A stretch of 64,000 nt of DNA from an uncultured virus (IMG/VR IMGVR_UViG_3300032007_000041). Taxonomy: Duplodnaviria > Heunggongvirae > Uroviricota > Caudoviricetes. Position 1 is the first letter of the stretch; every line of letters starts with the position of its first letter. The position numbers and the translations under genes were made by a program. Below are positions 1,680-33,786 of the stretch, in pieces. Location: the IMG/VR virus record IMGVR_UViG_3300032007_000041; one strand, written 5' to 3'. The notes beneath the pieces were generated by a model. That model did not search any database and was not told the DNA's origin. It saw only the letters and a program-made list of their open reading frames with translations.

Positions 1680-1680
1680 C

Positions 1681-3527: not shown

Positions 3528-4279
3528 TCGTTCTTATCCTTTTTAGATTTTTCCCACTCTATATTTTCAATTGGTTTTCTACAATATTTACAAAAATCGT
3601 TCTTGTGAGTATAAAAATTACAGATTGTCTCATCTGTAACTGAATCATCATATATATCTAATATGTCACCATCTTTTACTACAAAATTTTCATTAAAATA
3701 GTCATTAAATATATCTATATATGCTTGTATTGGGCATAAAAACAATTTCCCATCTTTTAGTTGTATACTTTCCCAATGTATCATACAACAATCAAATTCT
3801 GTTTGTTTTGCTTCATGTGTTAATATATGTTTTCTTAAAATTTTTGTATATTGTTTTTTATTAAAATCTTTTGTTCTAATTCCTTCTATTTCTAACAATT
3901 TGAATATACCTTTATAATCAATGTTTACAGGATATTTAGTTATTTCAACTAAAATATCATATTTTTTTATATACGGTAATAACTCATGTAATCTTTGTAA
4001 CAAAAGTAATCCATTAGTCAAAAAAGAAATATTTGTATTAGGGCTAATCTCTTTTATAGCATCAAAAAATAAACATATATTTTTATGTAATAATGGCTCC
4101 CCACCAAATATCCTAACATTATCCACATTAATTTTATTAGTTAATTGTTTAAAATCTTTTTTAAATTCTTCAACATTAGCAAACCATGATTTTGACAATG
4201 GGGCAAAATGAGCACACCCTTTACAATTTAAATTACAATGGTTTGTAATATGATATTCTATCATTCTAAGATGTTTCAT
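3515..4279 (-). CDS. Radical SAM protein with twitch-like C-terminus
   Basis: CNLNCKGC-AHFAPL, FGGEPLLH, LTNG, FCKYC; paralog of 846..1679. Confidence 0.9.
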   Translation of the reverse strand: MKHLRMIEYHITNHCNLNCKGCAHFAPLSKSWFANVEEFKKDFKQLTNKINVDNVRIFGGEPLLHKNICLFFDAIKEISPNTNISFLTNGLLLLQRLHELLPYIKKYDILVEITKYPVNIDYKGIFKLLEIEGIRTKDFNKKQYTKILRKHILTHEAKQTEFDCCMIHWESIQLKDGKLFLCPIQAYIDIFNDYFNENFVVKDGDILDIYDDSVTDETICNFYTHKNDFCKYCRKPIENIEWEKSKKDKNEWME

Positions 4280-4284
4280 AAAAT

Positions 4285-5526: not shown

Positions 5527-5531
5527 TATAA

Positions 5532-7121: not shown

Positions 7122-7136
7122 ATATCCAACTTCTTT

Positions 7137-8048
7137 CTAAAACAATGATAAAAATTCATCATTTGATTGCATAAATAATTTTTCTTCAAAATATTGTTTT
7201 TCTTTGTTTGTAAAAATATATGTATTATTATCATCTAAATCCAAATAATTCATATATTCACTTAAACCATCATAAAACTTTTTGTTTTTTGGTAAATACT
7301 GTGATTCTTTCCCCAATAAAATAAATTCAAACATTAATTTACCAATATTTTCGTAATATCTCGCACCATCATCTGTGTATAAATTATCATTATTTTTTTT
7401 ATCATATCTATAATATAAATATTTTTTATAATCAAACGGTTTAATATTATTACCATTTATTTTATTTTTATAATAATCTTCTGCAATTAAAATATCATTT
7501 TTTGTTGTAGATAACTTCTTTAATTTTTCTATTCGTTCTTTAGAAAATTTCATATACCAAATAAAATTATCTTCCACAAATTTAGAATTATATTGATTGC
7601 AAACTGTCAAAACTTTGTGTTCCTTTATATAATTTATTTCATCATTGTATATTGTTAAATCTTTTTGTTGTTTTTTATATATAAATGCAGGATATAATAA
7701 AATCTCTTGTTTTGCAGATTGTTTAAAACGATTATTTTTTTGCAATTTGATTATTTCTGAACTTATGATATTTATATCACCTTTTATATTATAAGTCATT
7801 TTTTTATGTTTAATGATACTTGTATTTCCATACGTATCCATGTATTTTCCAACCCATAAAGGCAAATAACAAATACCATCACCAAATGCTAAATATTCCC
7901 TAAATCGTCTTAACAAATTTTTATCTTCGTATAAAATAATAAATCTTACATCATGATTTGTAAACTTTCTTAAATTATAAAATGTATCTTCAAATGATGT
8001 ATAAGCTCCATTTAATTCATAAAACAAATAAATTAAGTTAATTTTCAT
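7137..8048 (-). CDS. Divergent GT-B-like glycosyltransferase, ENIGKMIFEF family copy 2
   Basis: NGAYTSFED..YNL, MKFSKER, ENIGKLMFEF, DGLSEY shared with paralogs. Confidence 0.5.
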   Translation of the reverse strand: MKINLIYLFYELNGAYTSFEDTFYNLRKFTNHDVRFIILYEDKNLLRRFREYLAFGDGICYLPLWVGKYMDTYGNTSIIKHKKMTYNIKGDINIISSEIIKLQKNNRFKQSAKQEILLYPAFIYKKQQKDLTIYNDEINYIKEHKVLTVCNQYNSKFVEDNFIWYMKFSKERIEKLKKLSTTKNDILIAEDYYKNKINGNNIKPFDYKKYLYYRYDKKNNDNLYTDDGARYYENIGKLMFEFILLGKESQYLPKNKKFYDGLSEYMNYLDLDDNNTYIFTNKEKQYFEEKLFMQSNDEFLSLF

Positions 8049-9183
8049 CGTCTACACTCTCAATACATTCATTGATTTTTTTCATAATATTATTTATATC
8101 ATATTTTTTTGCTTCGTCTAAACAATTTTGTCTCATATTAGATTTGCCAATCTTCATAATTTTATCCATATTTTCATCAAAATTATTATCGATTAACCAT
8201 CCATTATATCCATCTTTAATAAGGTAATTCATTACTTTACATTCTTTAAACCCAACTATGGGTACACCATACGATAATGCTTCTATAATAACTGTCGGCA
8301 ATCCTTCATATTTTGATGGAACAACCAAAACATCTGCATTTTTGTAAAATGCACTTACATTTTCTTGATAACCGTAATAATGTATATTTGGATAATTATA
8401 TTTATCCATATCTATATATCCAAAACCTTTATAACTATATCCGACTACATCACATTCATAATCTGTATTTTTAACCCAATCTAACAATATATGTGTTCTT
8501 TTTGTATCACTATTAATACGCCCAACATATAATATTTTATTTCTATTAGATTTAATATCAATATTATTCGGGATATCTATGCAATTATAAAAGACAACCG
8601 ACTTTTCTTTATATTTTTCACTTATATATTGCGGTAATAAAAAAGCCAATATATCACAATTTTTTAATACTAATTCATATAAACTTTTTTCATCTTTTAA
8701 AATTTCTTGTTTACGAATATAATCCATAGCACGAATATGAGTAATAGTATCCATCATAAACTGCGGTTCATTATGAAAAAACATAATAATTGGTATTTTA
8801 GAAACTTTTGATATAATTGTCCAAAATAATGCATCTTGTCCACAACTAGCATTACAAAATATACATTTAGGTTTTATATTTCTAATTTTAACTACATAAT
8901 CATTAATTAGTCCACGAGATAAATATGTATTTATATTTGTATGTATTGTAACATTATCAATATCAACACATTTTTCTCCTGAAATAAATAAATGGACATT
9001 ATATTTTTTGCTCAATTCATTGCAAATTTTTAATGTATATCTTTCTGCTCCCCACAAATAATTATGTGTTTCTCTTTTACCCATACTATTTGTAACGACT
9101 ACTGTATTATTGTCACCTATATATGTATCAAATTTATTTCCTATCATAAATTGCAATAGAAACATATCATTTTTTGTATTCAC
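8038..9183 (-). CDS. Glycosyltransferase family 4 (GT-B)
   Basis: GAER, ILYVGRI, ADVLVVPSKYEGLPTVIIEALSYGVPIV, IKDGYNGWL. Confidence 0.92.
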   Translation of the reverse strand: MNTKNDMFLLQFMIGNKFDTYIGDNNTVVVTNSMGKRETHNYLWGAERYTLKICNELSKKYNVHLFISGEKCVDIDNVTIHTNINTYLSRGLINDYVVKIRNIKPKCIFCNASCGQDALFWTIISKVSKIPIIMFFHNEPQFMMDTITHIRAMDYIRKQEILKDEKSLYELVLKNCDILAFLLPQYISEKYKEKSVVFYNCIDIPNNIDIKSNRNKILYVGRINSDTKRTHILLDWVKNTDYECDVVGYSYKGFGYIDMDKYNYPNIHYYGYQENVSAFYKNADVLVVPSKYEGLPTVIIEALSYGVPIVGFKECKVMNYLIKDGYNGWLIDNNFDENMDKIMKIGKSNMRQNCLDEAKKYDINNIMKKINECIESVDDEN

Positions 9184-10006
9184 GGCAAGCCATCCTCAAA
9201 AGTTTAGTTTCGTATTCTTTATTTATTCTATCTTCTGCATACATCTTCCAAATTTCACCAAATAAAGAACTTTTCTTCCACGGTTTAGGATTACTAGCAA
9301 AATGTAAAATTCGTATATTATCAGATTTTATTTTTTCACCATAAATACGAATTAATTCATTAAACCTATATTTGCTATATGTATTAGCTAAAAAATTATA
9401 TCCATAACTAATATATTTTATTTTCCCTAAAAATGCTTTATTTAAAACATCTTGCTCCCATAAAAAACCTTTATTTTCTTTTAGTTCTTTATTCAATTCG
9501 TCATAATAAACATACATTGTTTTATCTTTATCTATTATACTTTCTCTAATCTTTTTTAAATTAAAATACACATTACCTGCATTAAAATATGAAAATCCAT
9601 TTATTTTGTCTCTTACTGCTCCACAAAAATAATCTGATATATTGATATTAAATATATCAGATATATCTTTTATAACAATAGTATCTGAATCAATATGAAA
9701 TACTGTATCACAATCTAATAAATTATGTAACAATAATTTGTAATATACAACACCTGCATTATCATCTGATACAAAAATATTTTTATCTATATAAATTGGT
9801 ATTATATGAAAATCATCACTATCTAAACTTTTAATATCCTGTATATCTTTAAATTCTATACATAATAAATAAACATCGTAACAAATGTCACGATGTTTAT
9901 TGAATTTCAATGATTTCATTGAAATATATGTTTGAAATAGATAAGATTGATTTGTCATATAAACTATATTAAAACAGTTTTCCTGACAACTCATAATAAG
10001 CCTCAC
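9167..10006 (-). CDS. Glycosyltransferase family 8 (true start probably the Met at 9994)
   Basis: HIDSDTIV (DxD), YFNAGN, EQDVLN, ILHFASNPKPW. Confidence 0.9.
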   Translation of the reverse strand: MRLIMSCQENCFNIVYMTNQSYLFQTYISMKSLKFNKHRDICYDVYLLCIEFKDIQDIKSLDSDDFHIIPIYIDKNIFVSDDNAGVVYYKLLLHNLLDCDTVFHIDSDTIVIKDISDIFNINISDYFCGAVRDKINGFSYFNAGNVYFNLKKIRESIIDKDKTMYVYYDELNKELKENKGFLWEQDVLNKAFLGKIKYISYGYNFLANTYSKYRFNELIRIYGEKIKSDNIRILHFASNPKPWKKSSLFGEIWKMYAEDRINKEYETKLLRMACREYKK

Positions 10007-10604
10007 TAATTTCTTGTTTTGTCTTTGCAGCTTTAATCTTTTCTTTATATTCTTTATATTTCATATAAACTGCATCAATAGCATTAAAATCATCAAGAGA
10101 ATCAAGATATTCTGAAAGTTTTTCTAGTGTTTCTGTATCGCCACTATTAATTACTTCCAAATATTTTTCTTCCCTATTTTCATCTGTAATAAAGAAACCT
10201 TTAGCTTCAAGATAATGGTTTAATTTAAAGAAATGATATAATTCAAAATTAGAAATCATTAATTGATTACTAATTAATTCATTAATCATTCTTAATGTTT
10301 TTTCTTTATAAGCATCTAAAACATCTTCGTCTGTTTCTTCTTGTAATTGTTCTACCTTAATTAAATCAGATACATCATATACTTTACTAGCATCTATTTC
10401 TCCATCAATATAAATAAGCATACGTGGTTCACGATGTTCCAAATCTAATTCTTGAACAACATAAGTATATGCTTCTGGTGTTAACCAAACATATTCTTTA
10501 TTACTTAGCAAAACTTGTTCCATATCTAATTTCTGAAATGGTTCAATTAAAAAATTTTTACCATCTTGTTCAAGAGTTTTACAAAAAAAATTCATTGTCG
10601 CCAT
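9969..10604 (-). CDS. Hypothetical protein in the radical SAM/Cys-rich protein operon
   Basis: 211-aa ORF overlapping its neighbours; no motif recognised. Confidence 0.7.
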   Translation of the reverse strand: MATMNFFCKTLEQDGKNFLIEPFQKLDMEQVLLSNKEYVWLTPEAYTYVVQELDLEHREPRMLIYIDGEIDASKVYDVSDLIKVEQLQEETDEDVLDAYKEKTLRMINELISNQLMISNFELYHFFKLNHYLEAKGFFITDENREEKYLEVINSGDTETLEKLSEYLDSLDDFNAIDAVYMKYKEYKEKIKAAKTKQEISEAYYELSGKLF

Positions 10605-10891: not shown

Positions 10892-12277
10892 TTATACAAT
10901 ATATTGATATGAATAGCACCAACCACGAACTTTAACAACATAACAAGCACAGGAAGCTTCATGTCCAAAACAAGAGCAATAATTACAATTGCAAACACAT
11001 AAACTAGAAATTAAATTGATAGCTTTCATAAAATATGTTGCTACATTCGTACCTGCAATATTTAATGTATATTCACCTCTTGTAATTCCTAAAGGATTCA
11101 TACAAAATCTTGCTACTGTAATATTTGATTCTTGTGAAAAATTCCTTGTTTCTATCTGTTTTATTGGATTACCATTAACATCTTTCATAATGTTACCGTT
11201 TTTATCTTTAACCACGGTTTCTCTTGTACCAATACAATTTTGAACAAACATTGGGTCAATATCACCTGCTTCAGATATTCCACCTAATAAAGCAGTTCTC
11301 CATCTGTACACATAAGTATATAGGTCTGAAGGTATATATCCAAATACATCAAATGCAGGTTTTCTAATGCCATCATCATAAGTTACATACTTAACATAAT
11401 CTATATTGCCATATGGTCTGCGTTTAGGTTGATATATAACACCCCCACCTAAATTATATATTGGTTGCGTTGAATATCCATAAATATCACTTGTTAGTAG
11501 ATTGTCTGGTTCATGTGCAGAAACAACAGTATTGCCTTCAATATTGTTTATTTCATCTTGCTGTATTCCTGAATGTCGATATACATATTCTCTCATATCT
11601 GAACCTGTAAACCAGTTATTCCCTTTATGTGAACCAACATTTATTTCAGAAGCATTAGGATTATAATCTAATTGAGCGAAATCAGGTTCATTCTTTGCAG
11701 ATGTATTAACGGTAGTTGAAGAACCACCACTACTATAAGTTATAATACTGTCACTTTTATCTACTGACAATGGGAACGTTTGTATAGGCAATCTATCATT
11801 AACAGAACTTGATGCTTTAGCTGGTAACTCAATTTTAAATAATGTCAATATATCAGAAAAAATTTTTTCTATATCACTTTGGCGTATTTTGTCACCACTA
11901 GCCATATATCCACTATGCCCATTTTGGGAATCCAATTGAGCACTCATTGGTTGCAAAGTTCCTGGTCCATTCATAAAATTATTTCTTAACATAAATTCTT
12001 GGCGAATTTTAATTAGCAAAGCATTCCATTCATCATTTGTAATTGGATTATCATCAAAATTTTCTCTCAATCTAGTTGAACGCCTTTGATAGCTATGATT
12101 TGCTAAATATGATTGTGAACTACTATCGAATGTTGACCACAAACTAGTGGAAAATTCATAGTCTTTATCACCACCTGGTGTACCATATGGTTTGCATATA
12201 GGAAATTTTCCTGTTGGGTCAGGAACATATTGATAAAATCCGTCGCCTTTAAATCTATTTGCTATTTGTACTGACAT
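10892..12277 (-). CDS. Large protein with C-terminal Cys cluster; candidate radical SAM/SPASM substrate, possibly virion-associated
   Basis: Ends ...SLCVCNCNYCSCFGHEASCACYVVKVRGWCYSYQYIV; directly downstream of two SPASM enzymes. Confidence 0.6.
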   Translation of the reverse strand: MSVQIANRFKGDGFYQYVPDPTGKFPICKPYGTPGGDKDYEFSTSLWSTFDSSSQSYLANHSYQRRSTRLRENFDDNPITNDEWNALLIKIRQEFMLRNNFMNGPGTLQPMSAQLDSQNGHSGYMASGDKIRQSDIEKIFSDILTLFKIELPAKASSSVNDRLPIQTFPLSVDKSDSIITYSSGGSSTTVNTSAKNEPDFAQLDYNPNASEINVGSHKGNNWFTGSDMREYVYRHSGIQQDEINNIEGNTVVSAHEPDNLLTSDIYGYSTQPIYNLGGGVIYQPKRRPYGNIDYVKYVTYDDGIRKPAFDVFGYIPSDLYTYVYRWRTALLGGISEAGDIDPMFVQNCIGTRETVVKDKNGNIMKDVNGNPIKQIETRNFSQESNITVARFCMNPLGITRGEYTLNIAGTNVATYFMKAINLISSLCVCNCNYCSCFGHEASCACYVVKVRGWCYSYQYIV

Positions 12278-12337
12278 ATCTATATCAACTCCATTATATA
12301 TTTATTTTCAAAAAATTGATTATCTATTTAATAAATA

Positions 12338-13414
12338 TTAATGAGTCAATTTATAATATGCTTTAATATAATCAGAGATTTTATTATATAATTTACAAAC
12401 ATCTTCTTTATTTGAATTATTCCATTGTTCTTTTTTACCATTGCTATTTAAAGCATTACATCTAAAACAAAATATAGATTCACAATTAGAACATTTTTCA
12501 TTTTTTTTAAACATATTGTTTGCAACTAAATAATTACAATCTACCTTATGCAAAAAATTATCTTCAAAAATATTCGTATATACTAAATCTTGTTTCCCAT
12601 ACAAACAACCGTGACAATAAGATACATCACCATTCAAATCTATTTGAAATGAATTATATCCACCTGAACAATCCGCATTACTATTTGGCTGGTCAAACCA
12701 TAAAAATCCTGTTTGACCAAACTCTTTATTTTTCAAGAAATAACGGATTAATTTAATAAACTGATTATTCATTTTATTATAATCCACATTGCCTACATTT
12801 AATGTATCTGGTGTTAACGCAAATGGAATTTTTTTCTTTAATTCTTTATTTAATTTCTCAAAATTCAAATATTGTTCAAATAAATGTTCTTCTAAATCAT
12901 TAATTGTACACGTAGATTTTGTGCCAACATAAAAATCATTTTCATCAAACCATTTTATTGCTTCTCGTACCATTTTATCTGTTTCTTCCGCACTATGATT
13001 TAATTGTATACGTTGATTATTTTCTATATTATGATAATCATATGATACTTGAATCTGTAATCTTCTTCCTACGTGTTCTTTTATTTCTAATAAATCATTT
13101 TTATATGCTTGCACTAACGAACCATTTGTATACATGAAAAAGCTAACATCTTTATTATCATAAAATTCTGATATTATTTTTTTAATTTTATCAAAATAAA
13201 CTGTTGGTTCTCCACCCCAAAATTCAATTCTTAGTTCATTAACTTCTGCTAATTCATGTAATACTTCTATAATTCTGTCAAAAACATTTTGTGGAATACT
13301 TTCGTTTTTTTCAACTGCTCCATTTTTAACCTCAAAGCAATATTTACAACGGAAATTACAACCGCTCCCCATATTAATAGAAACTGACATAGGTGTTTTC
13401 ATAATTATTATCAT
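12338..13414 (-). CDS. Radical SAM/SPASM domain protein
   Basis: CNFRCKYC, WGGEP, YTNG; SPASM-type CSGG...GDVSYC...CSNCESIFCFRC...C. Confidence 0.9.
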   Translation of the reverse strand: MIIIMKTPMSVSINMGSGCNFRCKYCFEVKNGAVEKNESIPQNVFDRIIEVLHELAEVNELRIEFWGGEPTVYFDKIKKIISEFYDNKDVSFFMYTNGSLVQAYKNDLLEIKEHVGRRLQIQVSYDYHNIENNQRIQLNHSAEETDKMVREAIKWFDENDFYVGTKSTCTINDLEEHLFEQYLNFEKLNKELKKKIPFALTPDTLNVGNVDYNKMNNQFIKLIRYFLKNKEFGQTGFLWFDQPNSNADCSGGYNSFQIDLNGDVSYCHGCLYGKQDLVYTNIFEDNFLHKVDCNYLVANNMFKKNEKCSNCESIFCFRCNALNSNGKKEQWNNSNKEDVCKLYNKISDYIKAYYKLTH

Positions 13415-14454
13415 TCCTTATTTAATATATTAATATTATATTTATTTTTCATATATTGATATAATTTTGTAACCATATGAAAACATATTTTCAAAACTTC
13501 ACAATATCCATCTATAATACCATTATTCTGTATTTGTGAATATAAACACCCTTGATTACAAAAATTATTCAAAATACATTTATTACATTTATCATTATAT
13601 GTATTATTAATAGATTTTATATATGATATATTATCTTCAAAATATGTATCGTTATTACTGTCATACAATGGATATTGATGATTTGTATAAAATCTTGAAC
13701 AAGGATAAATTATACCTTCAGGAGTTATACTAAATCCACTACTACCTGCAAAACATATAAAATTTCTTTTTCCATTTAACAAATTTTGTAATATCTTTTC
13801 AACAAATCCTATATAAATCCATCTATTATAATTGTCATAATTCATTACCATAAAATCATATAAATTGTTTACCTGATTTTTTAATTCATTTAAACTATTT
13901 TTGTCCCATATATTATCCTTGACAAAAGATACATCTATATAAAAATTATCTATATCATTCTTCATAGCTAATTTATAAAAATAAACGATGTTTTTCATCA
14001 TATTATAAACATTATGATTATCTATCATCATTTTTGGTTGCATTTCTACAATTTTATTTTTGTATAATTGTTCTATATATTTATGATTATTGTCATTACA
14101 ACCATCACAACTAATTCCTATATGAATATTTCTTGTGTCAAATTCATTTTTAATTTTATCATTCAATAATATACCATTCGTTTGCATAAAACTATGCACT
14201 ACATTTAAATTAGTTTTTAAGTACTCGTCAAATAATAAAATATTTTCATATTCTAATAAAGGTTCTCCACCAAAATATGTTACATCATATTCTCCGTCAA
14301 AACTATCATCTATTTTTTTAGATAAATATTGTATATTTTTGATTTGTTTTTTTAATACATCAAATGTTAATTTTTTTGAATTTTGATTTATATAACAATA
14401 CTCACATTTTAAATTACAAGCATTCGTCATATGAATTTGTATAACATGCTTCAT
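13411..14454 (-). CDS. Radical SAM/SPASM domain protein
   Basis: CNLKCEYC, FGGEP, QTNG; CFAG...GIIYPC...CNKCILNNFCNQGC...YC. Confidence 0.92.
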   Translation of the reverse strand: MKHVIQIHMTNACNLKCEYCYINQNSKKLTFDVLKKQIKNIQYLSKKIDDSFDGEYDVTYFGGEPLLEYENILLFDEYLKTNLNVVHSFMQTNGILLNDKIKNEFDTRNIHIGISCDGCNDNNHKYIEQLYKNKIVEMQPKMMIDNHNVYNMMKNIVYFYKLAMKNDIDNFYIDVSFVKDNIWDKNSLNELKNQVNNLYDFMVMNYDNYNRWIYIGFVEKILQNLLNGKRNFICFAGSSGFSITPEGIIYPCSRFYTNHQYPLYDSNNDTYFEDNISYIKSINNTYNDKCNKCILNNFCNQGCLYSQIQNNGIIDGYCEVLKICFHMVTKLYQYMKNKYNINILNKE

Positions 14455-25483: not shown

Positions 25484-25542
25484 TAAACCTTCTTCTTATA
25501 AAAAAATTAAAGGGAATATAAAAATTCCCTTAGAATTCAATT

Positions 25543-25878
25543 TTACTTTTTTTCTTCTCTGTTCATAGGAGCGGGTGATTGAGCGTTTCTTAACATTTGA
25601 CCCAATTTATTATTTCCACCTACTACACTATTAACTGCATTAATACCTGCTACTGCAAAAATTAATGTTTCAACTATATCTGCCCATACTTGACTTAAAG
25701 CACCTGTGGATAAATACATATATCCACCAAATATCAATGATACTACAAATCCTATCATTAATACTGATACTCTAGTTTCATCAACGGACATTATATTATG
25801 AAAGAAATTTGATACCTTTGAACGTTGTTGCGGTTGTTGTTCAATAGTTTGTATATCTTGTTCCATTTTTTCTGTCAC
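25543..25878 (-). CDS. Two-TM membrane protein, holin-like
   Basis: Hydrophobic segments VSVLMIGFVVSLIFGGYMYL and IVETLIFAVAGINAV; charged C-terminus. Confidence 0.5.
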   Translation of the reverse strand: MTEKMEQDIQTIEQQPQQRSKVSNFFHNIMSVDETRVSVLMIGFVVSLIFGGYMYLSTGALSQVWADIVETLIFAVAGINAVNSVVGGNNKLGQMLRNAQSPAPMNREEKK

Positions 25879-25925
25879 CTCTTACAAGAATGACATATTA
25901 TAAAAAACAAGATTTTATCTTTGTC

Positions 25926-26831
25926 TTACGATGGTAAATCTTTTCCATCTGTAATATATGCCTGACAAGAAATATTTTCACAATCTTGACAAGTTTGACA
26001 ACTACATTGTGATTGACACGTTACTTGTTGGCAACAATTATTATACATATTGTGGTTTTGACAAATTTGACATGATTGACATTTACATTGAGTTTCACAG
26101 GTTTGGCACACTTGACATGGTAACACAGATTGACAGGTTTGGCAAGCGGTATTTCTTTGACATAAAACTAATTGACAAGTTGTTACCTGACAAGATACTT
26201 TTTCGCAGGTTAAAATTGAATAATCACCATTTATTTTTTGACACGCTTTCCAACTTTTAGTAGAAACACTTATTTTATAATCCCTATCCTTAATATATTG
26301 ATACACATACGCTTGTATACCATCAGATGGCTTACCTGTAAATGGGTCATAAGGATATTTAAGCAATTCATAATTCACTTCATATTCATAATTATTGTAT
26401 TTCGGAGGAAAATTCGTTGGAAGTCTTGCATTACTTGGTATTTTTTTAAAATTTTTAAATGCTTTTTTCTTATCTGGGGGGTCATACATATCACGTTTTA
26501 TATTTAATCCATAATAATTGTTTTCCCATTTGTCATAATGAGTTTTGTCATAATATAATTTGTTATCATCATATTCGTCTACGAATTTTTGTTGGCAACG
26601 TATTGTTTGACATTCTACTATAGGTGTACAATTACAATTTTGTACATGTTTTTTATATTCCTCTAATCTTGTTAAAGCATTTGATATATCTATCAAATCT
26701 TGACGTTTCATTGTCTTATTTTCTTTTGTTTCTCCACTTATATCTCTAAATTTTGTTGGAGTAATAATACCATTAGGAGTATTTGTTATTTCACATTTAA
26801 ATTTTAAATCATCACTCATATACTGCACCAC
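25926..26831 (-). CDS. Cys/Gln-repeat protein; candidate radical SAM/SPASM substrate
   Basis: 22 Cys in the last ~105 aa, mostly as CQ/CE (e.g. CQTCQSVLPCQVCQTCETQCKCQSCQICQ), plus NCNC near the N-terminus; overlaps the SPASM gene stop. Confidence 0.75.
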   Translation of the reverse strand: MVQYMSDDLKFKCEITNTPNGIITPTKFRDISGETKENKTMKRQDLIDISNALTRLEEYKKHVQNCNCTPIVECQTIRCQQKFVDEYDDNKLYYDKTHYDKWENNYYGLNIKRDMYDPPDKKKAFKNFKKIPSNARLPTNFPPKYNNYEYEVNYELLKYPYDPFTGKPSDGIQAYVYQYIKDRDYKISVSTKSWKACQKINGDYSILTCEKVSCQVTTCQLVLCQRNTACQTCQSVLPCQVCQTCETQCKCQSCQICQNHNMYNNCCQQVTCQSQCSCQTCQDCENISCQAYITDGKDLPS

Positions 26832-27900
26832 CCAATATTTTAATTAACTGCATAATCGGATAGTTCATCTGATATGACATTTTACAATAATATTCTCCCC
26901 TAGCTTTATCATTTACTAACGGACAACCATTTCTACAAATAATCTGTACAAGACATTCGTTACATTTTTTTGATGTATCTTTTGTTTTATCTAAATCAAA
27001 TACGTTTTTCATTATATCAAAATAGTTATCTCTAATATATCCAATTTTTGTATCTGTATTGTGACATTTATATAAATTACCTTGTAAATCCATATTTAAT
27101 ACTTCGCAACCATTCCCACATCTATCTCTATTTGGTACAAATGATTTCTGATTAATGGCATTACGAATATAACCAATTTTTTCTTCAATAAATTTTTTAC
27201 GAATAACACTAATCGGTTTATTTTCTTGAAAATGTAATCTATATTCTTCACATAATTGCGTCATTTGTTCTTGTACTTTATCATAATCAAATTGTTTTAA
27301 ATCCTGATTTTGCATATTAACATCTAATAGTTCATCAACATTAAAATACAATGTATGACCATGATAATTTTCTACATAATCTCGATTAACTTCTTCACAA
27401 TCTTCTAAATAATCAAGAATATAATTATATGTACTTAATACACCCGAAAATGAAAAATTATTTAATTTAAAAATATTTTCTTTATTTTCTTTTACCACAT
27501 CATATCCACGAGTAATTTCACTATTTCTCCCATCCCAACTAATTGTTACATGAGAAAAATTTTTATTTAAATATTCAACTTTTTCCTCGTCTAACAATTT
27601 ACCATTTGTTATCATGGTGAAATATACATTATTTGGCATATTATGTTCTTTTAATCCATTAATAAATTCTTTTATTTTTTCAAAAAATACAAGTGGTTCT
27701 CCACCATAAAATTGCAATCCCAAATTTTCATTCTGATTGCGTGCTATATCATTGATAAAATTATATATATCAGGATTAATATCTTTCCCTAATGCAACAT
27801 TTACCACGTCATGTTGTAAACAATACTTACAATTCATATTACATTCATGACCTAACATAATAAAAATTGTAGATATATTTGTTTGTAAATAATTACGCAT
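26812..27900 (-). CDS. Radical SAM/SPASM domain protein
   Basis: CNMNCKYC, YGGEP, ITNG; CGNG...GNLYKC...CNECLVQIICRNGC...YC. Confidence 0.92.
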   Translation of the reverse strand: MRNYLQTNISTIFIMLGHECNMNCKYCLQHDVVNVALGKDINPDIYNFINDIARNQNENLGLQFYGGEPLVFFEKIKEFINGLKEHNMPNNVYFTMITNGKLLDEEKVEYLNKNFSHVTISWDGRNSEITRGYDVVKENKENIFKLNNFSFSGVLSTYNYILDYLEDCEEVNRDYVENYHGHTLYFNVDELLDVNMQNQDLKQFDYDKVQEQMTQLCEEYRLHFQENKPISVIRKKFIEEKIGYIRNAINQKSFVPNRDRCGNGCEVLNMDLQGNLYKCHNTDTKIGYIRDNYFDIMKNVFDLDKTKDTSKKCNECLVQIICRNGCPLVNDKARGEYYCKMSYQMNYPIMQLIKILGGAVYE

Positions 27901-27942
27901 ACATTACTATCCTTTCATAATTGTATATTATATATATTATAT

Positions 27943-27978
27943 AAAAAAAGAGAAGTGTTTTTTAACTTCTCTTTTTTT
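27943..27978. terminator. Intrinsic terminator
   Basis: AAAAAAGAGAAGT-loop-ACTTCTCTTTTTT. Confidence 0.7.
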
Positions 27979-27984
27979 TTAACA

Positions 27985-28578
27985 TTATTTAAATAAATCT
28001 TTTGATACTTCATACATAGTGTCTCGTGAATGTAAGGCATCTTGATAATCTTCTTCAACTAGCTTATCCCATTCTTCATCTGTATACTTTACAGAACCAT
28101 CGTCATGTTGAGAATCATATTCGCTAACAGATTGATATAAATCATCCATAATTTTATCCACTTTTTCAATCATATAATCTATATCATCTTCTAAATAACT
28201 CAAACATTTATCATCATGTTTAATACCATTAATCAAATATTTAATTACTTCTTCAGAAGCATTAATATCATCACCCGTTCCTAATACTTCAGGTAAGCCA
28301 ACTTGTTCAATAGCATCTTTTACATAACCATAATTTTCACTATTAGAAAGAAGAAAATCAACAAATCCATTAGCAGTTGCTTCATCATGAAAATTATCTA
28401 ATCCATCAAATGTCATAAACCAATCCTGTAAAGCACTATTTGCACGCCATGTATCATCAATGTAATCCATCAATTCATCTTCTGTCCAATCTTTATCAGA
28501 CAAAACTTGTTTTAACTGTTCAACAGTATTAATTGATTTAAATTCTTCTGCTACTTTTTTAAGCATTATATATATCAC
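27985..28578 (-). CDS. Highly acidic hypothetical protein (candidate inner-head protein) between two radical SAM paralogs
   Basis: D/E-rich ORF beginning MLKKVA. Confidence 0.7.
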   Translation of the reverse strand: MIYIMLKKVAEEFKSINTVEQLKQVLSDKDWTEDELMDYIDDTWRANSALQDWFMTFDGLDNFHDEATANGFVDFLLSNSENYGYVKDAIEQVGLPEVLGTGDDINASEEVIKYLINGIKHDDKCLSYLEDDIDYMIEKVDKIMDDLYQSVSEYDSQHDDGSVKYTDEEWDKLVEEDYQDALHSRDTMYEVSKDLFK

Positions 28579-28580
28579 CT

Positions 28581-29693
28581 TTATCCTTTAAAATTCAACA
28601 TAAATTCATATTCTTCTTTTTGTTTTTCATTTTTTATTATATCTAATTCGTATTTTAATTTTAAAATCGGATAATATCTTAATGTAGCCATTCTACAATA
28701 AAATTCATCACGAGAAGTTTGTGGTATCTTTGGACAAGCATTTCTACAAAGAGACTGTACAGGACAATCATTACAACCATTTAAACCGTGTTCAATCGTT
28801 TTATCATGGTCATTAATATTTTTCAATACATCAAAATAATTATCATGTATTGTTCCCATCACTTCGGAATCGCCGTGACAACAGTAAAGATTCCCTTGTA
28901 AATCTAAATTGATATTTTCTCCACCGTTTCCACAAAATAATCTAGTCGGTGTTTTATCACAACCACAATTACAATCTTCTATAAATTTAATATACATTGG
29001 ATTACTTATAATTTTATCATTTTTGATACAATATAAATATTCTTCACAAATTTCTTCCATTTGCTGATAAAATTTATTTTCATCAAACTTCTTTAATTGT
29101 GGATTTGGCAATTCTGTATCGTACTGCATTAAATTTTCTATATGTACAGATATTTCATGACCAAATTCTTTTTGTACTTCATAACAATCATCTAAATAGT
29201 CTTTTGGGTAACAATAAGAAGAAAATACTCCGTCAAAACCCCAAAACCCTTCTTTATCTAATTTAAATAAATTTTCTTTATTTTGCGCTATAACATCATA
29301 ACTACGAGTTATTTTACTGTTTCTCCCATCCCACGATAAACCAAATCCTTTTAAATTTTCTTTTATCCACGGAATCGTTTTATCGTTTAATAGCTTACCA
29401 TTTGTTACCATACTAAAAGTAATATTTTCATTTCCTTCTTTAGATTTTACCATATCTACTACTTTTTGCATAGTATCAAAATATACTAAAGGTTCTCCAC
29501 CCCAAAATAATATATTAATCGGATGAATATTATTAGCTATATCCAATAACCAATCTATTATCATAGGGTCAATTTCTTTCGCCATAGCATGATTTACTAC
29601 ATCATGTTCAATACAATATCTACAACTTAAATTGCATTTAAAGCCCATCATTAAATACACTTGATGTATTGGCAAATTTAATACATTTAGCAT
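28581..29693 (-). CDS. Radical SAM/SPASM domain protein, paralog of 26812..27900
   Basis: CNLSCRYC, WGGEP, VTNG, shared SWDGRNS.ITR.YDV; CGNG...CNDCPVQSLCRNAC...YC. Confidence 0.92.
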   Translation of the reverse strand: MLNVLNLPIHQVYLMMGFKCNLSCRYCIEHDVVNHAMAKEIDPMIIDWLLDIANNIHPINILFWGGEPLVYFDTMQKVVDMVKSKEGNENITFSMVTNGKLLNDKTIPWIKENLKGFGLSWDGRNSKITRSYDVIAQNKENLFKLDKEGFWGFDGVFSSYCYPKDYLDDCYEVQKEFGHEISVHIENLMQYDTELPNPQLKKFDENKFYQQMEEICEEYLYCIKNDKIISNPMYIKFIEDCNCGCDKTPTRLFCGNGGENINLDLQGNLYCCHGDSEVMGTIHDNYFDVLKNINDHDKTIEHGLNGCNDCPVQSLCRNACPKIPQTSRDEFYCRMATLRYYPILKLKYELDIIKNEKQKEEYEFMLNFKG

Positions 29694-29697
29694 AACC

Positions 29698-30927
29698 TCA
29701 ATCCTTTATTCCTTGTAATATCATACCTGTATTTGTCCAATCTGCTTTATCAATTGCTTCTTTTACAGTCATAACATGAAGATGTATTCTTTCCGTATCT
29801 TCAATAACACCATGTACTTGATTATCATTTTTAACTTTATTTATTTCTTCTTCTGATAATTCAACTGTGAACAAAGCTATCTTATGAGAACATAATGTAG
29901 CAGCAGACTGTTTCATATCTAATTGTTTAAATCTATTTTTATTTAATTTTAATCCAGTTTCTTCTTCTAATTCTTTTGAAGCGGTTAACAACATATCATC
30001 TAATGGATTTAGTGAACTTCCACCAGGCAACTCATATACCATTTCCGTTTCATTATTAATTGGTGTTCTAAATTCTTCACATAAAACAATTTCCGTATCG
30101 AGCAAATTATCTTTTTTACAATAAGCTAAGATATAACTCATATCTGTTCGTGCAACAACAAATTCATTATCTTTAACCCTATCTTCTTTTGCAATATATA
30201 CAGAAGGATGAAAAATCTCTAAAAACATTTGTTTTGCTTTTGGCATAACAAATTCATATTCCATATTAAAATCAGTTAAATAATTTCCAACATTTAACTG
30301 TTGTTTATACCAATTTTGAAACTGCTTTGTTTTATATATATGCATTGGTATTTTAACTTCCGTATCTTCACGATAAACACCTTGCCCTAAATATTCTACT
30401 GTAGCTTTTAATGTATCCTTTAATGTATTATGCCACTCATACTTATCTCTTGAAATTAATTTCAAATATTCCATTCTTGGTGCTTCATCAGGACAACCAC
30501 AAAACAGTTTGTTTGAATTTAAAAATCGACCAAATTCTACATTTGTTGTTAAGCCAATCATTTCAAAATCCGAACGCATTTCTCTAGGAATCCAAAATAC
30601 AATAGCATCACAAGCGCACATACAACTATATTCCCAATCTAATTGAGCTTTTAACGTAAATGTACGCTTCATTTCTTCACCTTTGATATTGTTATCATCA
30701 TAAGGTACTTTTGCTCTATCTTCAGGAATATATACAACACCATTATATCCCATTTCTTCTAAAATTTGTAATGCTTCTTTTTTCCACGATAATTCATATT
30801 CCTTTCGTGGAACTGGTCCAGCTAAGAACATGGACTTTGTTTCATCTTTTGGCATATCTTCTCGTGAATATACAACTGTCATTTTATTCATTCCTAAACG
30901 TTTCATTAAATCTTTCCTTTCATACAC
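29698..30927 (-). CDS. Nucleoside 2-deoxyribosyltransferase-like domain fused to a Nudix hydrolase
   Basis: N-terminal FLAGP, QLDWE, IVFWIPR, TTNVEFG; C-terminal Nudix box ELPGG....ASKELEEETG. Confidence 0.85.
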   Translation of the reverse strand: MYERKDLMKRLGMNKMTVVYSREDMPKDETKSMFLAGPVPRKEYELSWKKEALQILEEMGYNGVVYIPEDRAKVPYDDNNIKGEEMKRTFTLKAQLDWEYSCMCACDAIVFWIPREMRSDFEMIGLTTNVEFGRFLNSNKLFCGCPDEAPRMEYLKLISRDKYEWHNTLKDTLKATVEYLGQGVYREDTEVKIPMHIYKTKQFQNWYKQQLNVGNYLTDFNMEYEFVMPKAKQMFLEIFHPSVYIAKEDRVKDNEFVVARTDMSYILAYCKKDNLLDTEIVLCEEFRTPINNETEMVYELPGGSSLNPLDDMLLTASKELEEETGLKLNKNRFKQLDMKQSAATLCSHKIALFTVELSEEEINKVKNDNQVHGVIEDTERIHLHVMTVKEAIDKADWTNTGMILQGIKD

Positions 30928-31711
30928 TTTTTAATTTAGCAAGTCGCGTAACTTGTTTATCATGGCAATCATAATAATATACTTTATTTACATTTGTCTG
31001 TGATTTTATTGCATCTGCTACTTCTTCTCGTGTACAATTTGATAAATTATCATCTATAAATGCCATATTCATAGCTATATGTCCAAAAGCAAATACATCA
31101 GAACCTACATCTTTTTCCATTGTATCATTATCTATACGTTGTATATCTTTATCATTATCATATCCTTGTTTTAAAAATACACGTTTGATTAATTGCGTAT
31201 GTGTTTCAAAATTTTTTCCTATATATATTTTACCATCTACATATACAAATGGATTTTCACGATTATTATAATCCAATTTATACGTTAAAAATGTACTATC
31301 TCCTACATTGTCTTTCTTATTTTTTAAGTCCTCCATATATTCTATTGTATCAGGATAATATTTGTCTTTATATTTTAAATAATTTTGATAATATCCTTTT
31401 CTATCTGATAATTCCGTTAATATATCTTCAGGTAAATTTTCAGATACTTCAAAATCCTCTATATATACTCCTATATTTTCTTCACAAGTAAATAAAAAAT
31501 CTGTATCTTCTATCAAATTATACACATATAAATCTATATCTGCATCTTCATTATTTTCATCTTTTTTACTAAAATAATTTTTCAAATATTCTTCACTAAA
31601 ATATTTTGATATATCTGAATCTTTGTCTATTCCTTCTAAACATTTATCAAAATTATTCCCTAACAAATCTTTTAATTCATATATATCATCTATATATATT
31701 TCTTCATCCAT
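30920..31711 (-). CDS. Acidic tandem-paralog family member (start reassigned to MDEEIYID)
   Basis: Shares LDY..R...FVY.DG, THxQ, AFGHI..NMAF and C-terminal RLAK with the next two genes; ORF-track start overlaps a terminator and the upstream gene. Confidence 0.75.
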   Translation of the reverse strand: MDEEIYIDDIYELKDLLGNNFDKCLEGIDKDSDISKYFSEEYLKNYFSKKDENNEDADIDLYVYNLIEDTDFLFTCEENIGVYIEDFEVSENLPEDILTELSDRKGYYQNYLKYKDKYYPDTIEYMEDLKNKKDNVGDSTFLTYKLDYNNRENPFVYVDGKIYIGKNFETHTQLIKRVFLKQGYDNDKDIQRIDNDTMEKDVGSDVFAFGHIAMNMAFIDDNLSNCTREEVADAIKSQTNVNKVYYYDCHDKQVTRLAKLKSV

Positions 31712-31751
31712 ATTTTCACAACCCTGTATATTATCTATAAAAAAAATAAAT

Positions 31752-31779
31752 AAAGACAAGTTTTTTACAACTTGTCTTT
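31752..31779. terminator. Intrinsic terminator
   Basis: AAAGACAAGTT-loop-AACTTGTCTTT. Confidence 0.7.
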
Positions 31780-31784
31780 TCATT

Positions 31785-32714
31785 TTATTTTGTATAGCAT
31801 CTGAATTTAGCAAGGCGTTGAACCAAATAATTATTCGTATCATAAAAATATGCTTTGTCTACGCCCAATTGTTTAATACAAGCCTTTGCTACATCATCTT
31901 CACTTGCACCTGATTCAAGTACTTCAATAAATGCCATATTATCAACAATATGTCCAAATGCAATATCTTTTGTACCTGTTAAACGTTCCATTCTTGCTTG
32001 GCTAGGTCTACTTCCTCCAATATCACCATCACCTTCAAAATCTTTTGGAATCCTATCTCCTTTTCCTACATCTTCCAAATATTTTTCTAAAATTTGTGCA
32101 TGGGTTTCTCCCTTATCACCTTTGATACAATCACCTGCTATATAAATGAACGCTGCGTCTCTTGTATCATAATCTAAATTTTCTGTAGATTCTACTTCTA
32201 TTGTATCACCAATATTGTCATCTAATTCATTTAAATCAGACCACTCATCTACACTTGCAGATTTTTCATCATAATCTAATTCTAGTGTTTCGTCTTGATT
32301 TTCTTCCCCAAATCCATACGAACGTTCATTATCTTCCATATACATATCTTTTGCTCTATCAAATTCTTCTTCAAAATCTGTATCACTAGGAATATCATCT
32401 GCTATTTCCGATACACAATTATCCGTTATGGATAATTCATCTTCTGAATTATAATCACCTAACCATGAATTGTATTCGCTTACTAATACATCAGAATTAA
32501 TGATACCATCTAAATATTCTTCTGAATTAATGTTTTTTACTCCCTCATATGCCGTTTGATTCATATCACAATCGAAATCAGCCGTTGGGAATAATTCTGC
32601 AAGTGTATCATATATTCCATCTTCTGTAATACTATAAGCAGAATTAATAAAATCTTTATAATCAGAATCTAAATAATCTTTTAAATCATTTGCATTATCA
32701 AAAACTATTTCCAT
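31785..32714 (-). CDS. Acidic tandem-paralog family member
   Basis: Colinear similarity to 32854..33786 (KDYLDSD, ITE.GI.D, SRP.Q.RM.RL, AFGHIVDNMAF). Confidence 0.85.
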   Translation of the reverse strand: MEIVFDNANDLKDYLDSDYKDFINSAYSITEDGIYDTLAELFPTADFDCDMNQTAYEGVKNINSEEYLDGIINSDVLVSEYNSWLGDYNSEDELSITDNCVSEIADDIPSDTDFEEEFDRAKDMYMEDNERSYGFGEENQDETLELDYDEKSASVDEWSDLNELDDNIGDTIEVESTENLDYDTRDAAFIYIAGDCIKGDKGETHAQILEKYLEDVGKGDRIPKDFEGDGDIGGSRPSQARMERLTGTKDIAFGHIVDNMAFIEVLESGASEDDVAKACIKQLGVDKAYFYDTNNYLVQRLAKFRCYTK

Positions 32715-32821
32715 TATACATCCATCCTTATTATCTTTGCTAATCTTTTTACTACATCTGTTTTAGAATTTCTACTTACCATATATACTTTGTCTACTTT
32801 TAATTGCTTCTTACAAACATT
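32714..32821 (-). pseudogene. C-terminal remnant of another acidic paralog
   Basis: Startless frame NVCKKQLKVDKVYMVSRNSKTDVVKRLAKIIRMDV* matches ACKKQLKVDKVY...VVKRLAK of 32854..33786. Confidence 0.75.
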
Positions 32822-32853
32822 CTACTATTCCTTTTCTTAAAATATTATCTTTT

Positions 32854-33786
32854 TTATTTCGTATAAACTTTCCATTTAGCCAAACGTTTAACTACACCGC
32901 TGTAATTATCTAAGAAATAAACCTTATCTACTTTTAATTGTTTCTTACAAGCCTTGGCTACATCATCTTCATTTGCTCCTGTTTCCAAAACTTCAACAAA
33001 CGCCATATTATCTACAATATGCCCAAACGCTACATTATCTGTATCTACCAAACGTCTCATACGTGACTGCGTTGGTCTACTTCTTGCTATATCATCACCT
33101 TTTAAATCCTCTGGTATCATATCTTCATTTCCAAGTTCTTCCATGTAATCCGCTAAAATCTGCCCATGTGTTTTTCCTTCTTCGCCATAGGCTACATCAC
33201 CATCTATATATACAAACGCACCATCGCGATTATCATAATCTAATGACCTTCCATCTTCAATGTTTGTTTGTTCCCCTATTTTATCATCTACTTCTGCTAA
33301 ATCTGACCAATCATCAACAGAATTATCTTCTTCATTATACTCTAAATCTAGGGTTATATCATCATCTTCTTCACCAAAACCTGAACAATTACGCTCACAA
33401 TAAGATACATAACTATTCAATGCTTTATCAAAATTTTCCTCAATATCCGTTTTGCTTGTTAGTTCCCCTGCCATTTCAGAAACACAGTCGCTAGAAACAT
33501 CTAATTCATCTTCTGTATTATAATCAGATAGCCAATTTTCGTATTCATCTAATAACAAGTCATTATTTGTAATATCATCAATATAATCATTGACATCTAA
33601 ATTACTTAACCCTTCATAAGCAGTTTCGTTCATTTCATCGTCACCGTTACGTGTTGGATAAAATGCTTCTAATTCATCACGAATACCTCCTTCTGTAATG
33701 CAATAAGGTGAATTTAAAAATTCATTAAAATCTGAATCTAAATAATCTTTCGCTTCGCTTATTGTATTAAAAACAATCTTTGCCAT
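32854..33786 (-). CDS. Acidic tandem-paralog family member
   Basis: AAGGAGG RBS; paralog of 31785..32714. Confidence 0.85.
   Translation of the reverse strand: MAKIVFNTISEAKDYLDSDFNEFLNSPYCITEGGIRDELEAFYPTRNGDDEMNETAYEGLSNLDVNDYIDDITNNDLLLDEYENWLSDYNTEDELDVSSDCVSEMAGELTSKTDIEENFDKALNSYVSYCERNCSGFGEEDDDITLDLEYNEEDNSVDDWSDLAEVDDKIGEQTNIEDGRSLDYDNRDGAFVYIDGDVAYGEEGKTHGQILADYMEELGNEDMIPEDLKGDDIARSRPTQSRMRRLVDTDNVAFGHIVDNMAFVEVLETGANEDDVAKACKKQLKVDKVYFLDNYSGVVKRLAKWKVYTK

Follow-up and report, generated by a model that had tools for sequence, protein, structure and literature searches.

Paralogous radical SAM/SPASM enzymes beside a cysteine-glutamine repeat protein in a jumbo gut phage: a candidate system for thioether stapling of a fiber-associated protein

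Why should a bacteriophage encode two radical S-adenosylmethionine (SAM) enzymes next to a protein that ends in a succession of cysteine-glutamine (CQ) repeats? The question is raised by positions 25926 to 29693 of a 64,000-nucleotide stretch of DNA, the whole of which is referred to here as the window, from an uncultured virus of the Caudoviricetes (IMG/VR record IMGVR_UViG_3300032007_000041). The window is part of a 281,186-bp giant (jumbo) gut phage record with a CheckV completeness of 98% and a GC content of about 25%. Its minus strand carries two radical SAM/SPASM enzymes, designated rSAM-A and rSAM-B, and a Cys-rich protein, designated the CQ-repeat protein. In an initial annotation made from the sequence, these genes were interpreted as a cross-linking system for a full-size phage protein, resembling the way in which peptides that are made by ribosomes and modified after translation (RiPPs) mature. 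As suggested by our comparative analysis, we lean towards the view that the enzymes equip a fiber-associated phage protein with many Cys thioether bridges, as archaeal CrpC does with CrpA.

The genes follow each other on the minus strand in the order 409-aa nucleoside 2-deoxyribosyltransferase (NDT)-like/Nudix protein, rSAM-B, acidic 197-aa open reading frame (ORF), rSAM-A, CQ-repeat protein, 111-aa ORF, dUTPase_2, DinG/Rad3-type helicase and RlaP (Table 1). This agrees with the layout first described, apart from the acidic ORF between the enzymes, which had been omitted. The genes of rSAM-A and of its presumed substrate are coupled, the ATG of the CQ gene at 26819 overlapping the stop codon of rSAM-A by 8 nt (ATGAGTGA) and being preceded by GGTGGTG. 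Contigs from RNA libraries (four runs of four studies) span the rSAM-A/CQ junction (X5 25540-27273, X20 25573-27147 and X6 26267-27919); such contigs cannot show transcription, DNA carry-over is possible, and they commonly break near 27.9-28.0 kb with loose ends. The hairpin behind the 111-aa ORF is the likely end of the rSAM-A/CQ/111-aa transcription unit; the terminator search was a consensus scan alone, with 2 sites found against 1.3 expected, and the promoter scan was no better than shuffles (52 found against 46 expected).

The Cys-rich ORF opens at a GTG as 25926..26831. The start used by its homologs is the ATG at 26819 (MSD...), and the protein counted from there has 297 aa in place of the 301 aa originally assigned. 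The layout of its Cys residues had been described correctly to the residue. The protein contains 27 Cys in total, and its last 105 aa hold 22 of them, spaced mostly by 3 or 5 residues, with 16 CQ, 3 CE and 1 CC dipeptides. The 19 C[QE] dipeptides of this tail were reached by none of 100000 composition-preserving shuffles. The N-terminal part ends in NCNC...CQ...CQ (Cys 62, 64, 70 and 75) and is followed by a Cys-free middle of 117 aa (previously estimated at about 110) that is rich in K (18), Y (17), D (12) and N (10). No Pfam, NCBIfam or PHROG family was matched by the protein, and neither blastn of the locus nor tblastn of the CQ-repeat protein found a match in the GenBank phage collection. 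The AlphaFold2 model, built from nine sequences, had a mean pLDDT of 33.8 and no usable fold, and the ESM Atlas look-up with the short form P0004 gave no usable hit.

Seven relatives of the CQ-repeat protein were compared, three of them long forms of 290-297 aa and four short forms of 190-203 aa devoid of the middle segment; a further short form of 170 aa occurs in locus L005. Throughout the family, Cys and the Q or E that follows it are invariant. The middle segment had been put forward as a variable, possibly receptor-binding, domain. It is indeed an insert, missing from P0004-P0008 and from the forms of 170-203 aa, and it evolves fastest (identity to P0003 of 36%, compared with 77% in the N-terminal part and 70% in the tail). 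A receptor-binding role would be speculative, and the search for relatives of the insert found none outside the same protein.

The identification of the two enzymes as radical SAM/SPASM paralogs was confirmed. They share 42% identity over 359 aa (E 2e-98), and each matches Radical_SAM (PF04055) with 42.4 bits, above the cut-off of 29.5. Both carry the CX3CX2C motif at residues 20-27 (CNMNCKYC and CNLSCRYC) and the SPASM core CX2CX5CX3C, which belongs to the C-terminal seven-Cys motif for two auxiliary clusters, at residue 313 in rSAM-A and 307 in rSAM-B. The SPASM subfamily TIGR04085 was matched by rSAM-A with 34.1 bits (cut-off 27); the SPASM assignment of rSAM-B comes from the motif alone, TIGR04085 not being among the best 25 matches listed for it. 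In an alignment of 12 sequences, SPASM Cys 261, 279, 313, 316, 322 and 339 of rSAM-A are invariant and Cys 326 is nearly so. The PHROG label of these enzymes is merely "radical SAM domain-containing protein" (phrog_1802).

Among NCBIfam families, PapB (NF047865) is the best match of both enzymes, with 111.5 bits for rSAM-A and 103.8 bits for rSAM-B, below the cut-off of 340. As residues 8-336 of rSAM-A align to positions 1-326 of the 330-position PapB profile, i.e. end to end, the phage enzyme has the size and architecture of PapB. Also below their cut-offs were the SCIFF maturase TIGR03974 (80.9 and 95.6 bits versus 425, the alignments beginning at profile positions 93 and 96), CcpM and QhpD, both among the best matches, and TIGR04463, the family of CrpC (33.0 and 39.4 bits versus 525). 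The closest solved structure is that of CteB (5wgg, E 1.9e-19), in which residues 97-417 of the chain are covered by residues 10-327 of rSAM-A. Because the CteB alignment begins only at residue 97 and the PapB profile is covered completely, a fused N-terminal RiPP recognition element (RRE) is absent, as had been anticipated. The predicted complex of rSAM-A with residues 1-80 of the CQ-repeat protein gave a median of 0.27 against a mark of 0.32, which counts neither way on binding. A recent tandem duplication of rSAM-A as the origin of rSAM-B was rejected, since in the tree rSAM-B branches outside all rSAM-A orthologs, as sister to their whole clade (support 99/99); its branch length of 0.82 leaves fast evolution possible.

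The pairing of enzyme and CQ-repeat protein is conserved. Of 15 related loci on viral and metagenome contigs, several of which represent the same or nearly the same phage, 14 have an rSAM-A ortholog immediately upstream of the CQ gene, and the fifteenth begins inside that gene. The 111-aa ORF and then the dUTPase follow the CQ gene in all 15 loci, and the NDT/Nudix gene is kept upstream of the module in every locus reaching that far. In the product of the latter, an NDT-like domain (Pfam, 39.1 bits versus 30) is fused to a Nudix-like part (PHROG nudix, E about 2e-4) at the C-terminus. Together with the acidic ORF, rSAM-B occurs only beside the long, insert-bearing form of the CQ-repeat protein, that is in the window type and in L004; in L005, L012, L015, L016 and L017 the NDT gene adjoins rSAM-A, rSAM-B is absent and the CQ-repeat protein is of the short form. 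This co-occurrence is suggestive only, because it amounts to one or two evolutionary events. The acidic ORF has a single ortholog, in L004 (72% identity), and neither it nor the 111-aa ORF matched a Pfam, NCBIfam or PHROG family. As all loci of the clade are syntenic, their linkage taken alone could be mere synteny; relatives lacking the enzyme were sought via the neighboring dUTPase, and only the two contigs already known came back.

The linkage extends beyond simple synteny, as revealed by a search of viral contigs with the enzyme alignment alone, which returned 79 loci. We scored as a partner any ORF on the same strand as the enzyme, no more than 3 kb away from it, that reached 10 or more Cys per 50 aa. 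Such an ORF was present in 2 of 2 loci at 60-100% enzyme identity, in 23 of 26 at 33-59% and in 19 of 51 at 20-32%; the Cys-dense ORF scored in L025 is doubtful, as that locus ends right after the enzyme. The three misses at 33-59% comprise L047, which ends 30 nt past the match, L049, where the CQ ORFs have 9 Cys per 50 aa, and L046, where none was found. Overall, 70 Cys-dense ORFs were counted in 441 kb near the enzyme and 6 in 387 kb farther off. The association with CQ-repeat ORFs that the initial annotation led one to expect is thus observed both within the clade and outside it.

At 34-39% identity, genes for two small proteins, CQ1 and CQ2 (about 100-150 aa), lie behind that of the enzyme, at +8 to +390 nt. 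The former reads MAKNGxIxKTxFTD...ELxxAIxxLxxYAxNVDNCGNC and continues in CQ repeats, and the latter carries ...AINxLExxFSGNCCQANCCQ.... All 21 phage loci of this clade, and all 14 of its prophage loci in Negativicutes, have small CQ-repeat proteins adjoining the enzyme, in the prophages right behind a tail-fiber gene. When the enzymes were clustered at 40% identity or more and set against the dominant dipeptide of the neighboring protein, the first cluster (21 loci, 11 groups at 90% identity) had CQ/E partners in all 21 loci, the second (10 loci, 5 groups at 90% identity) had CS/T partners in all 10, and the clade of the window enzyme had CQ/E partners in 2 of 2. In the largest and most distant cluster (32 loci), 9 partners were of the CN/D type and 23 loci had none at the threshold. 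The residue after Cys therefore tracks the enzyme lineage. This co-variation is expected if the residue is recognized or attacked by the enzyme, and it is not expected of a plain set of metal ligands.

In the related phages, the enzymes are placed among tail-fiber genes. Four loci (L026, L033, L035 and L036) share the order tail fiber, rSAM, CQ1, CQ2, Hint-like ORF, 280-aa ORF and second rSAM. According to PHROG assignments, L026 reads Dit, 499-aa tail fiber, rSAM, CQ1, CQ2, 134-aa ORF, 280-aa ORF, 322-aa second rSAM and endolysin, and L033 has baseplate wedge, tail and tail-fiber proteins upstream of the cassette; L036 is another jumbo phage with an identical arrangement. In L053 and L078, a collagen-like tail-fiber protein (646 and 615 aa) itself terminates in an NCNCNCDCNC tail, with rSAM genes behind it, and the CS/T-type proteins of L057 and L080 open with a "tail protein" PHROG module. 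The order of the six-gene cassette is kept, as far as the contigs reach, in all 14 loci from bacterial genomes, all of them Negativicutes (Acidaminococcus massiliensis, Acidaminococcus fermentans, Succiniclasticum, Dialister, Megasphaera sueciensis and Selenomonadaceae). These bacteria are strict anaerobes, which fits oxygen-labile enzymes. When loci were collected by the tail fiber instead, rSAM and Cys-rich ORF occurred together in 7 of 80, either alone in none and neither in 73; this table separates clade from non-clade and is not independent evidence, since the 7 are close relatives and the 73 share only the central fiber motif. The association with the virion proposed for the CQ-repeat protein is indirectly supported by the position of the cassette directly behind tail-fiber genes in the relatives; in the phage under study, the module lies between NDT/Nudix and dUTPase/helicase genes.

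Some accessory genes of the cassette were also characterized. The ORF after CQ2 (L026:7844-8248, L033:7699-8115) matches Hint_2 with 27.2 bits versus a cut-off of 28.4 (E 5.7e-6), more weakly in L033, and in the 282-aa protein P0019 CQ1 is fused to a Hint domain starting with C-F-I-A-G-T. This association hints at C-terminal autoprocessing of CQ proteins in some phages. A BLAST comparison of the 263-320-aa accessory proteins of the cassettes with the ORFs of the jumbo phage itself gave no hit.

The Cys-free N-terminal module connects the window protein with the tail-cassette proteins. The modules of the window CQ family and of the CQ1 proteins are homologous, as indicated by an hhalign probability of 97.2% (E 3.7e-11, 44 columns). 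We define here a phage CQ-repeat family, for which no curated model exists, by one N-terminal module, NGxIxxTxF...ELxxAxxxLxxY..NVxNC, with C[QE] repeats behind it; alignments and hhalign place the window protein in it. A profile of the module found 841 representatives at E <= 0.001 and 30 at E <= 1e-10. A further 149 representatives were listed. By pattern matching, 56 of them contain the unit no more than once; 33 of the 56, which reach 8 or more Cys per 50 aa, are the CQ1 family, and many of the remainder are fragments. The unit is present two or three times, C-terminally in unrelated proteins, in 93, none of which has four or more C[QE]; M23 peptidase, subtilase, Ig and FG-GAP domains were detected by Pfam in a sample of them.

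The threefold form constitutes an unannotated domain of about 110 aa, composed of three FTDxxLxxGxTxIKAVHIxELRxAI units and present in P0022, P0024, P0029 and 40 others at the C-terminus of diverse bacterial proteins (e.g., M23 peptidase); it is not represented by a Pfam or NCBIfam model. Its predicted structure (pLDDT 83.1, above 90 in the repeats) comprises three helices, each after an extended segment. Foldseek returned nothing at E <= 0.001, and the best VIA-align matches (a designed filament, Z 8.0; the BARA domain of Vps30/Atg6, Z 7.1; the Beclin 1 ECD, Z 6.4) lie in the chance range for helical models and serve as a hint only. Because the module corresponds to just one unit, whereas other proteins have three copies of it, CQ and CQ1 chains may form homotrimers, as in fibers. 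The Cys-free module may be an element of enzyme recognition or of trimerization.

Since related phages keep the pair beside tail-fiber genes, the enzymes probably lock a fiber-associated protein with permanent S-C bridges. According to the mechanism that we propose, the substrate of rSAM-A, and here also of its paralog rSAM-B, would be the CQ-repeat protein translated just behind rSAM-A, and it would be bound without an RRE, probably via the conserved Cys-free N-terminal module. At each repeat, reductive cleavage of SAM would lead to abstraction of H from a carbon in the side chain of the Gln or Glu after Cys, and the Cys sulfur would be joined to that carbon in a ranthionine-type thioether. 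Repeated up to about 20 times per chain, this cycle would yield a covalently stapled, non-reducible rod or knot.

Several observations weigh against thioether stapling of a fiber-associated protein. The module of this phage is flanked by genes for NDT/Nudix, dUTPase, DinG/Rad3-type helicase and RlaP, not by tail genes. Every match of the enzymes to a characterized maturase family lies far below its cut-off, and neither the family scores nor the sequence permit a call of the chemistry. With the RRE absent from both enzymes, substrate recognition would have to proceed without a known element. Most loci of the most distant enzyme cluster are devoid of a Cys-dense neighbor at the threshold, several of them having NCNC tails with 8-9 Cys, and the loci counted are not independent events because many of them are related, as is evident from the collapse of the 21-locus cluster into 11 groups. 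In the cultured Ralstonia phage RSP15 (L020, NC_030948.1), a distant rSAM (ORF045) just after annotated tail protein and side-tail-fiber genes has no Cys-rich neighbor. With family scores this low, the same enzyme-substrate pair could carry out another chemistry: conversion of Cys to formylglycine (as by anSME), sactionine formation at C-alpha, C-C links, side-chain methylation or epimerization. SPASM enzymes perform many reactions, and this range is visible in the NCBIfam matches of rSAM-A and rSAM-B, which are too low for family assignment (anSME TIGR03942, 58.2 and 53.9 bits; cyclophane-forming YhhB, 55.2 and 46.6; DynA, 49.4 and 43.5). We nevertheless regard another chemistry as unlikely, since the top NCBIfam families of all four PapB-like enzymes of the window (the second pair is given in Table 1) are thioether formers, and Cys is the sole constant across the three types of partner repeats. 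Asn and Thr are known as thioether acceptors. The succession of Cys and Q/E, N/D or S/T also resembles the donor/acceptor pairs described in PMC9413430 and PMC13692751.

A different function altogether would be that of an unmodified metal or Fe-S ladder, in which the Cys of the tail provide structural Zn or Fe sites, or donate electrons or clusters to the radical SAM enzymes of the phage, and adjacency reflects co-function. The tail contains CX2CX2CX3C (CQVCQTCETQC), a spacing typical of ferredoxins that makes metal or Fe-S binding plausible and that likewise counts against stapling, together with many CXXC pairs. The demand for Fe-S clusters should be high in this phage, with 10 Pfam Radical_SAM matches in its whole genome, 8 of them over the cut-off. 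Metal binding is suspected by the authors of CrpA as well (PMC13692751). However, no Pfam family, ferredoxin-type (Fer4) included, was found for the CQ-repeat protein at E <= 0.01, and ligand Cys alone would not need a following residue that is conserved and co-varies with the enzyme clade. As the partners include the C-terminal tails of tail-fiber proteins and the occurrence of Cys-repeat ORFs follows that of peptide-maturase-type SPASM enzymes, we consider a mere metal ladder quite unlikely. The least probable of the explanations, to which we assign very little weight, is that the CQ-repeat protein is the precursor of a released RiPP-like bacteriocin or signal, with the membrane-like 111-aa ORF serving export or immunity. 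It would accommodate the leader-like N-terminus followed by a Cys-rich core, the two hydrophobic stretches of the 111-aa ORF kept in the operon, and the CQ motifs of a classical SCIFF peptide (L019). Yet no protease or ABC exporter gene was found in any cassette examined, the cassette is situated between tail-fiber and lysis genes in the relatives, the N-terminal module is the unit of a folded repeat domain, and the presumed substrates are 100-300 aa long.

Beyond this locus, we put forward more tentatively, and with somewhat less than even confidence, the generalization that phages whose hosts are strict anaerobes employ dedicated radical SAM/SPASM enzymes for stapling their own tail-fiber-associated proteins, or the C-terminus of the fiber, with tens of non-reducible thioether bridges, which may run between the three chains of a trimer. 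Three or more enzyme clades would be matched to CQ/E, CS/T and CN/D codes, and the jumbo phage studied here would possess two or three modules.

Among the 386 ORFs of the phage genome, only three credible Cys-dense proteins were found. A second module of the same kind occupies 10892..14454 of the window on the minus strand, with two PapB-like rSAM/SPASM genes directly upstream of a 461-aa protein (Table 1) and a 910-aa ORF upstream of the module; neither the 461-aa nor the 910-aa protein belongs to a PHROG or Pfam family. Another Cys-rich protein, outside the window (G000:C1:275772-276446, minus strand; L021:5772-6446), has 224 aa with 23 Cys and CQ repeats, and its segment ...AINYLENRFSKNCNC... 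resembles the CQ2 type (BLASTP E 6e-5 and 9e-5 to CQ2 of L026). Its neighbors are a 240-aa ORF with a faint tail-fiber PHROG match (E 1.1e-4) and, on the other side, a genuine NrdG activase (168.2 bits versus 126.1), and no SPASM enzyme adjoins it.

Table 1. Positions in the window of the radical SAM/SPASM modules, their segments and adjoining features.
Feature	Position	Strand	Description
NDT-like/Nudix protein	29698..30927	-	409 aa; upstream neighbor of module
rSAM-B	28581..29693	-	370-aa radical SAM/SPASM enzyme, paralog of rSAM-A
Acidic 197-aa ORF	27985..28578	-	between rSAM-B and rSAM-A; co-occurs with rSAM-B
rSAM-A	26812..27900	-	362-aa radical SAM/SPASM enzyme, conserved partner of CQ-repeat protein
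CQ-repeat protein	25926..26819	-	297 aa from ATG at 26819; presumed substrate
Cys-free N-terminal module of CQ-repeat protein	26637..26780	-	residues 14-61: NGIITPTKF...LTRLEEYKKHVQ
Cys-free Lys/Tyr-rich insert of CQ-repeat protein	26244..26594	-	residues 76-192; lineage-specific, fast-evolving
Cys-rich tail of CQ-repeat protein	25929..26243	-	residues 193-297; 22 Cys
111-aa ORF	25543..25878	-	two hydrophobic stretches, judged membrane helices by eye
Terminator-like hairpin and T-run	25510..25531	-	8-bp stem, then TAATTTTTTT; just 3' of 111-aa ORF
PapB-like rSAM, second module	13411..14454	-	347 aa; PapB 121.5 bits
PapB-like rSAM, second module	12338..13414	-	358 aa; PapB 69.3 bits
461-aa protein, second module	10892..12277	-	last ~45 aa Cys-rich (CVCNCNYCSC...SCAC)

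Further radical SAM matches in the window are located at about 1299-1577, 3968-4252, 5224-5487 and 43117-43332 and at 55776..56753. Besides the four PapB-like enzymes and NrdG, the phage encodes short MoaA/twitch-like proteins (846..1679 and 3515..4279) and a 325-aa radical SAM protein (55776..56753). Two short radical SAM genes are interleaved with a minus-strand cluster (1..10604) that includes glycosyltransferases of families GT2 (2544..3527), GT4 (8038..9183) and GT8 (9167..10006) and a NodU-like carbamoyltransferase (5532..7121), and that may be a glycan- or virion-modification module. At 30920..33786 (minus strand), three paralogous acidic proteins (307, 309 and 310 aa) encoded in tandem share the C-terminal motif ...AFGHI.xNMAFI...V.RLAK and have no match among Pfam or PHROG families. 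In the GenBank phage collection, the best tblastn E-value (5e-18, H5) belonged to positions 4498..6089 of L019 (MT835472.1), an unannotated 91-kb "Bacteriophage sp." record, where a 47-aa peptide (GGCGECQTSCQSACKTSC...) is followed by a 451-aa maturase as in a classical SCIFF pair.

If our interpretation is true, radical SAM thioether stapling would extend from small bacterial peptides and one archaeal protein to viral structural proteins. It would provide phages of oxygen-free habitats with a redox-proof substitute for disulfides in the parts that contact the host surface, and would represent an undescribed class of virion post-translational modification as well as the largest natural thioether-stapled proteins known. 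The enzyme clades with their matched repeat codes would be RRE-free multi-site enzymes for protein-sized substrates and hence of interest for protein engineering. Cultured hosts are available, since the cassette is found in prophages of Acidaminococcus massiliensis, Acidaminococcus fermentans and Megasphaera sueciensis.

Among known systems, CteB with its SCIFF peptide CteA (PDB 5WGG/5WHY; TIGR03974) is similar in that the radical SAM and SPASM parts align and the SCIFF core, as in the 47-aa ORF of L019, has CQ motifs. In contrast, residues 1-96 of CteB, which we take to be its RRE, have no counterpart in the phage enzymes, which reach 81-96 bits versus 425, and SCIFF has about 6 Cys in about 45 aa as compared with 22 in 105 aa. 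QhpD, which acts in the maturation of quinohemoprotein amine dehydrogenase, is a SPASM enzyme whose cross-links join Cys to Asp or Glu in a protein subunit, not in a released peptide, and the nature of the target is the feature it would share with the phage system. The phage enzymes match its family, TIGR03906, with 68.5 and 83.4 bits versus 453, and QhpC is an enzyme subunit with few links, not a repeat protein. QHNDH is named as a protein with RiPP-like modifications in PMC13692751.

The PapB/PapA (freyrasin) system offers the best-matching family for all four window enzymes and, like the phage system, has substrates with several Cys-acceptor motifs each; the bond made by PapB joins Cys to Asp or Glu, and a spacing of 0-6 residues is tolerated (PMC9413430). 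The phage enzymes differ in their scores (69-122 bits versus 340), in the presumed acceptor Gln or Glu right after Cys instead of CX3D, in substrates of 170-300 aa instead of a short peptide, and in being encoded by a phage.

No phage radical SAM/Cys-repeat system was described in the full-text literature searched; the supplements of PMC13692751, which list RS-associated Cys-rich proteins from all domains of life and lie outside that search, might include prophage genes, and a term search of that paper found no mention of phage. The statement of the initial annotation that no characterized system of this kind is known has nevertheless become outdated, although no phage case was found. As reported in 2026 (PMC13692751), CrpC of Methanococcus voltae, a SPASM enzyme of the TIGR04463 family, makes ranthionine links on the 28.8-kDa Cys-rich protein CrpA, the repeats of which carry C-X-X-Q/D, as shown by mass spectrometry (MS). 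CrpC possesses an RRE, which the phage enzymes do not, the latter score far below the TIGR04463 cut-off, and the substrate families are unrelated. The archaeal genes are chromosomal and the links of CrpA are MS-shown; their counterparts here are phage-encoded, with tail-fiber cassettes in the relatives, and their chemistry is a proposal. The two systems nonetheless have in common a SPASM enzyme gene beside a protein-sized, repeat-built Cys-rich substrate, with a leader-like N-terminus, a C-terminal Cys region and Q or D near the Cys.

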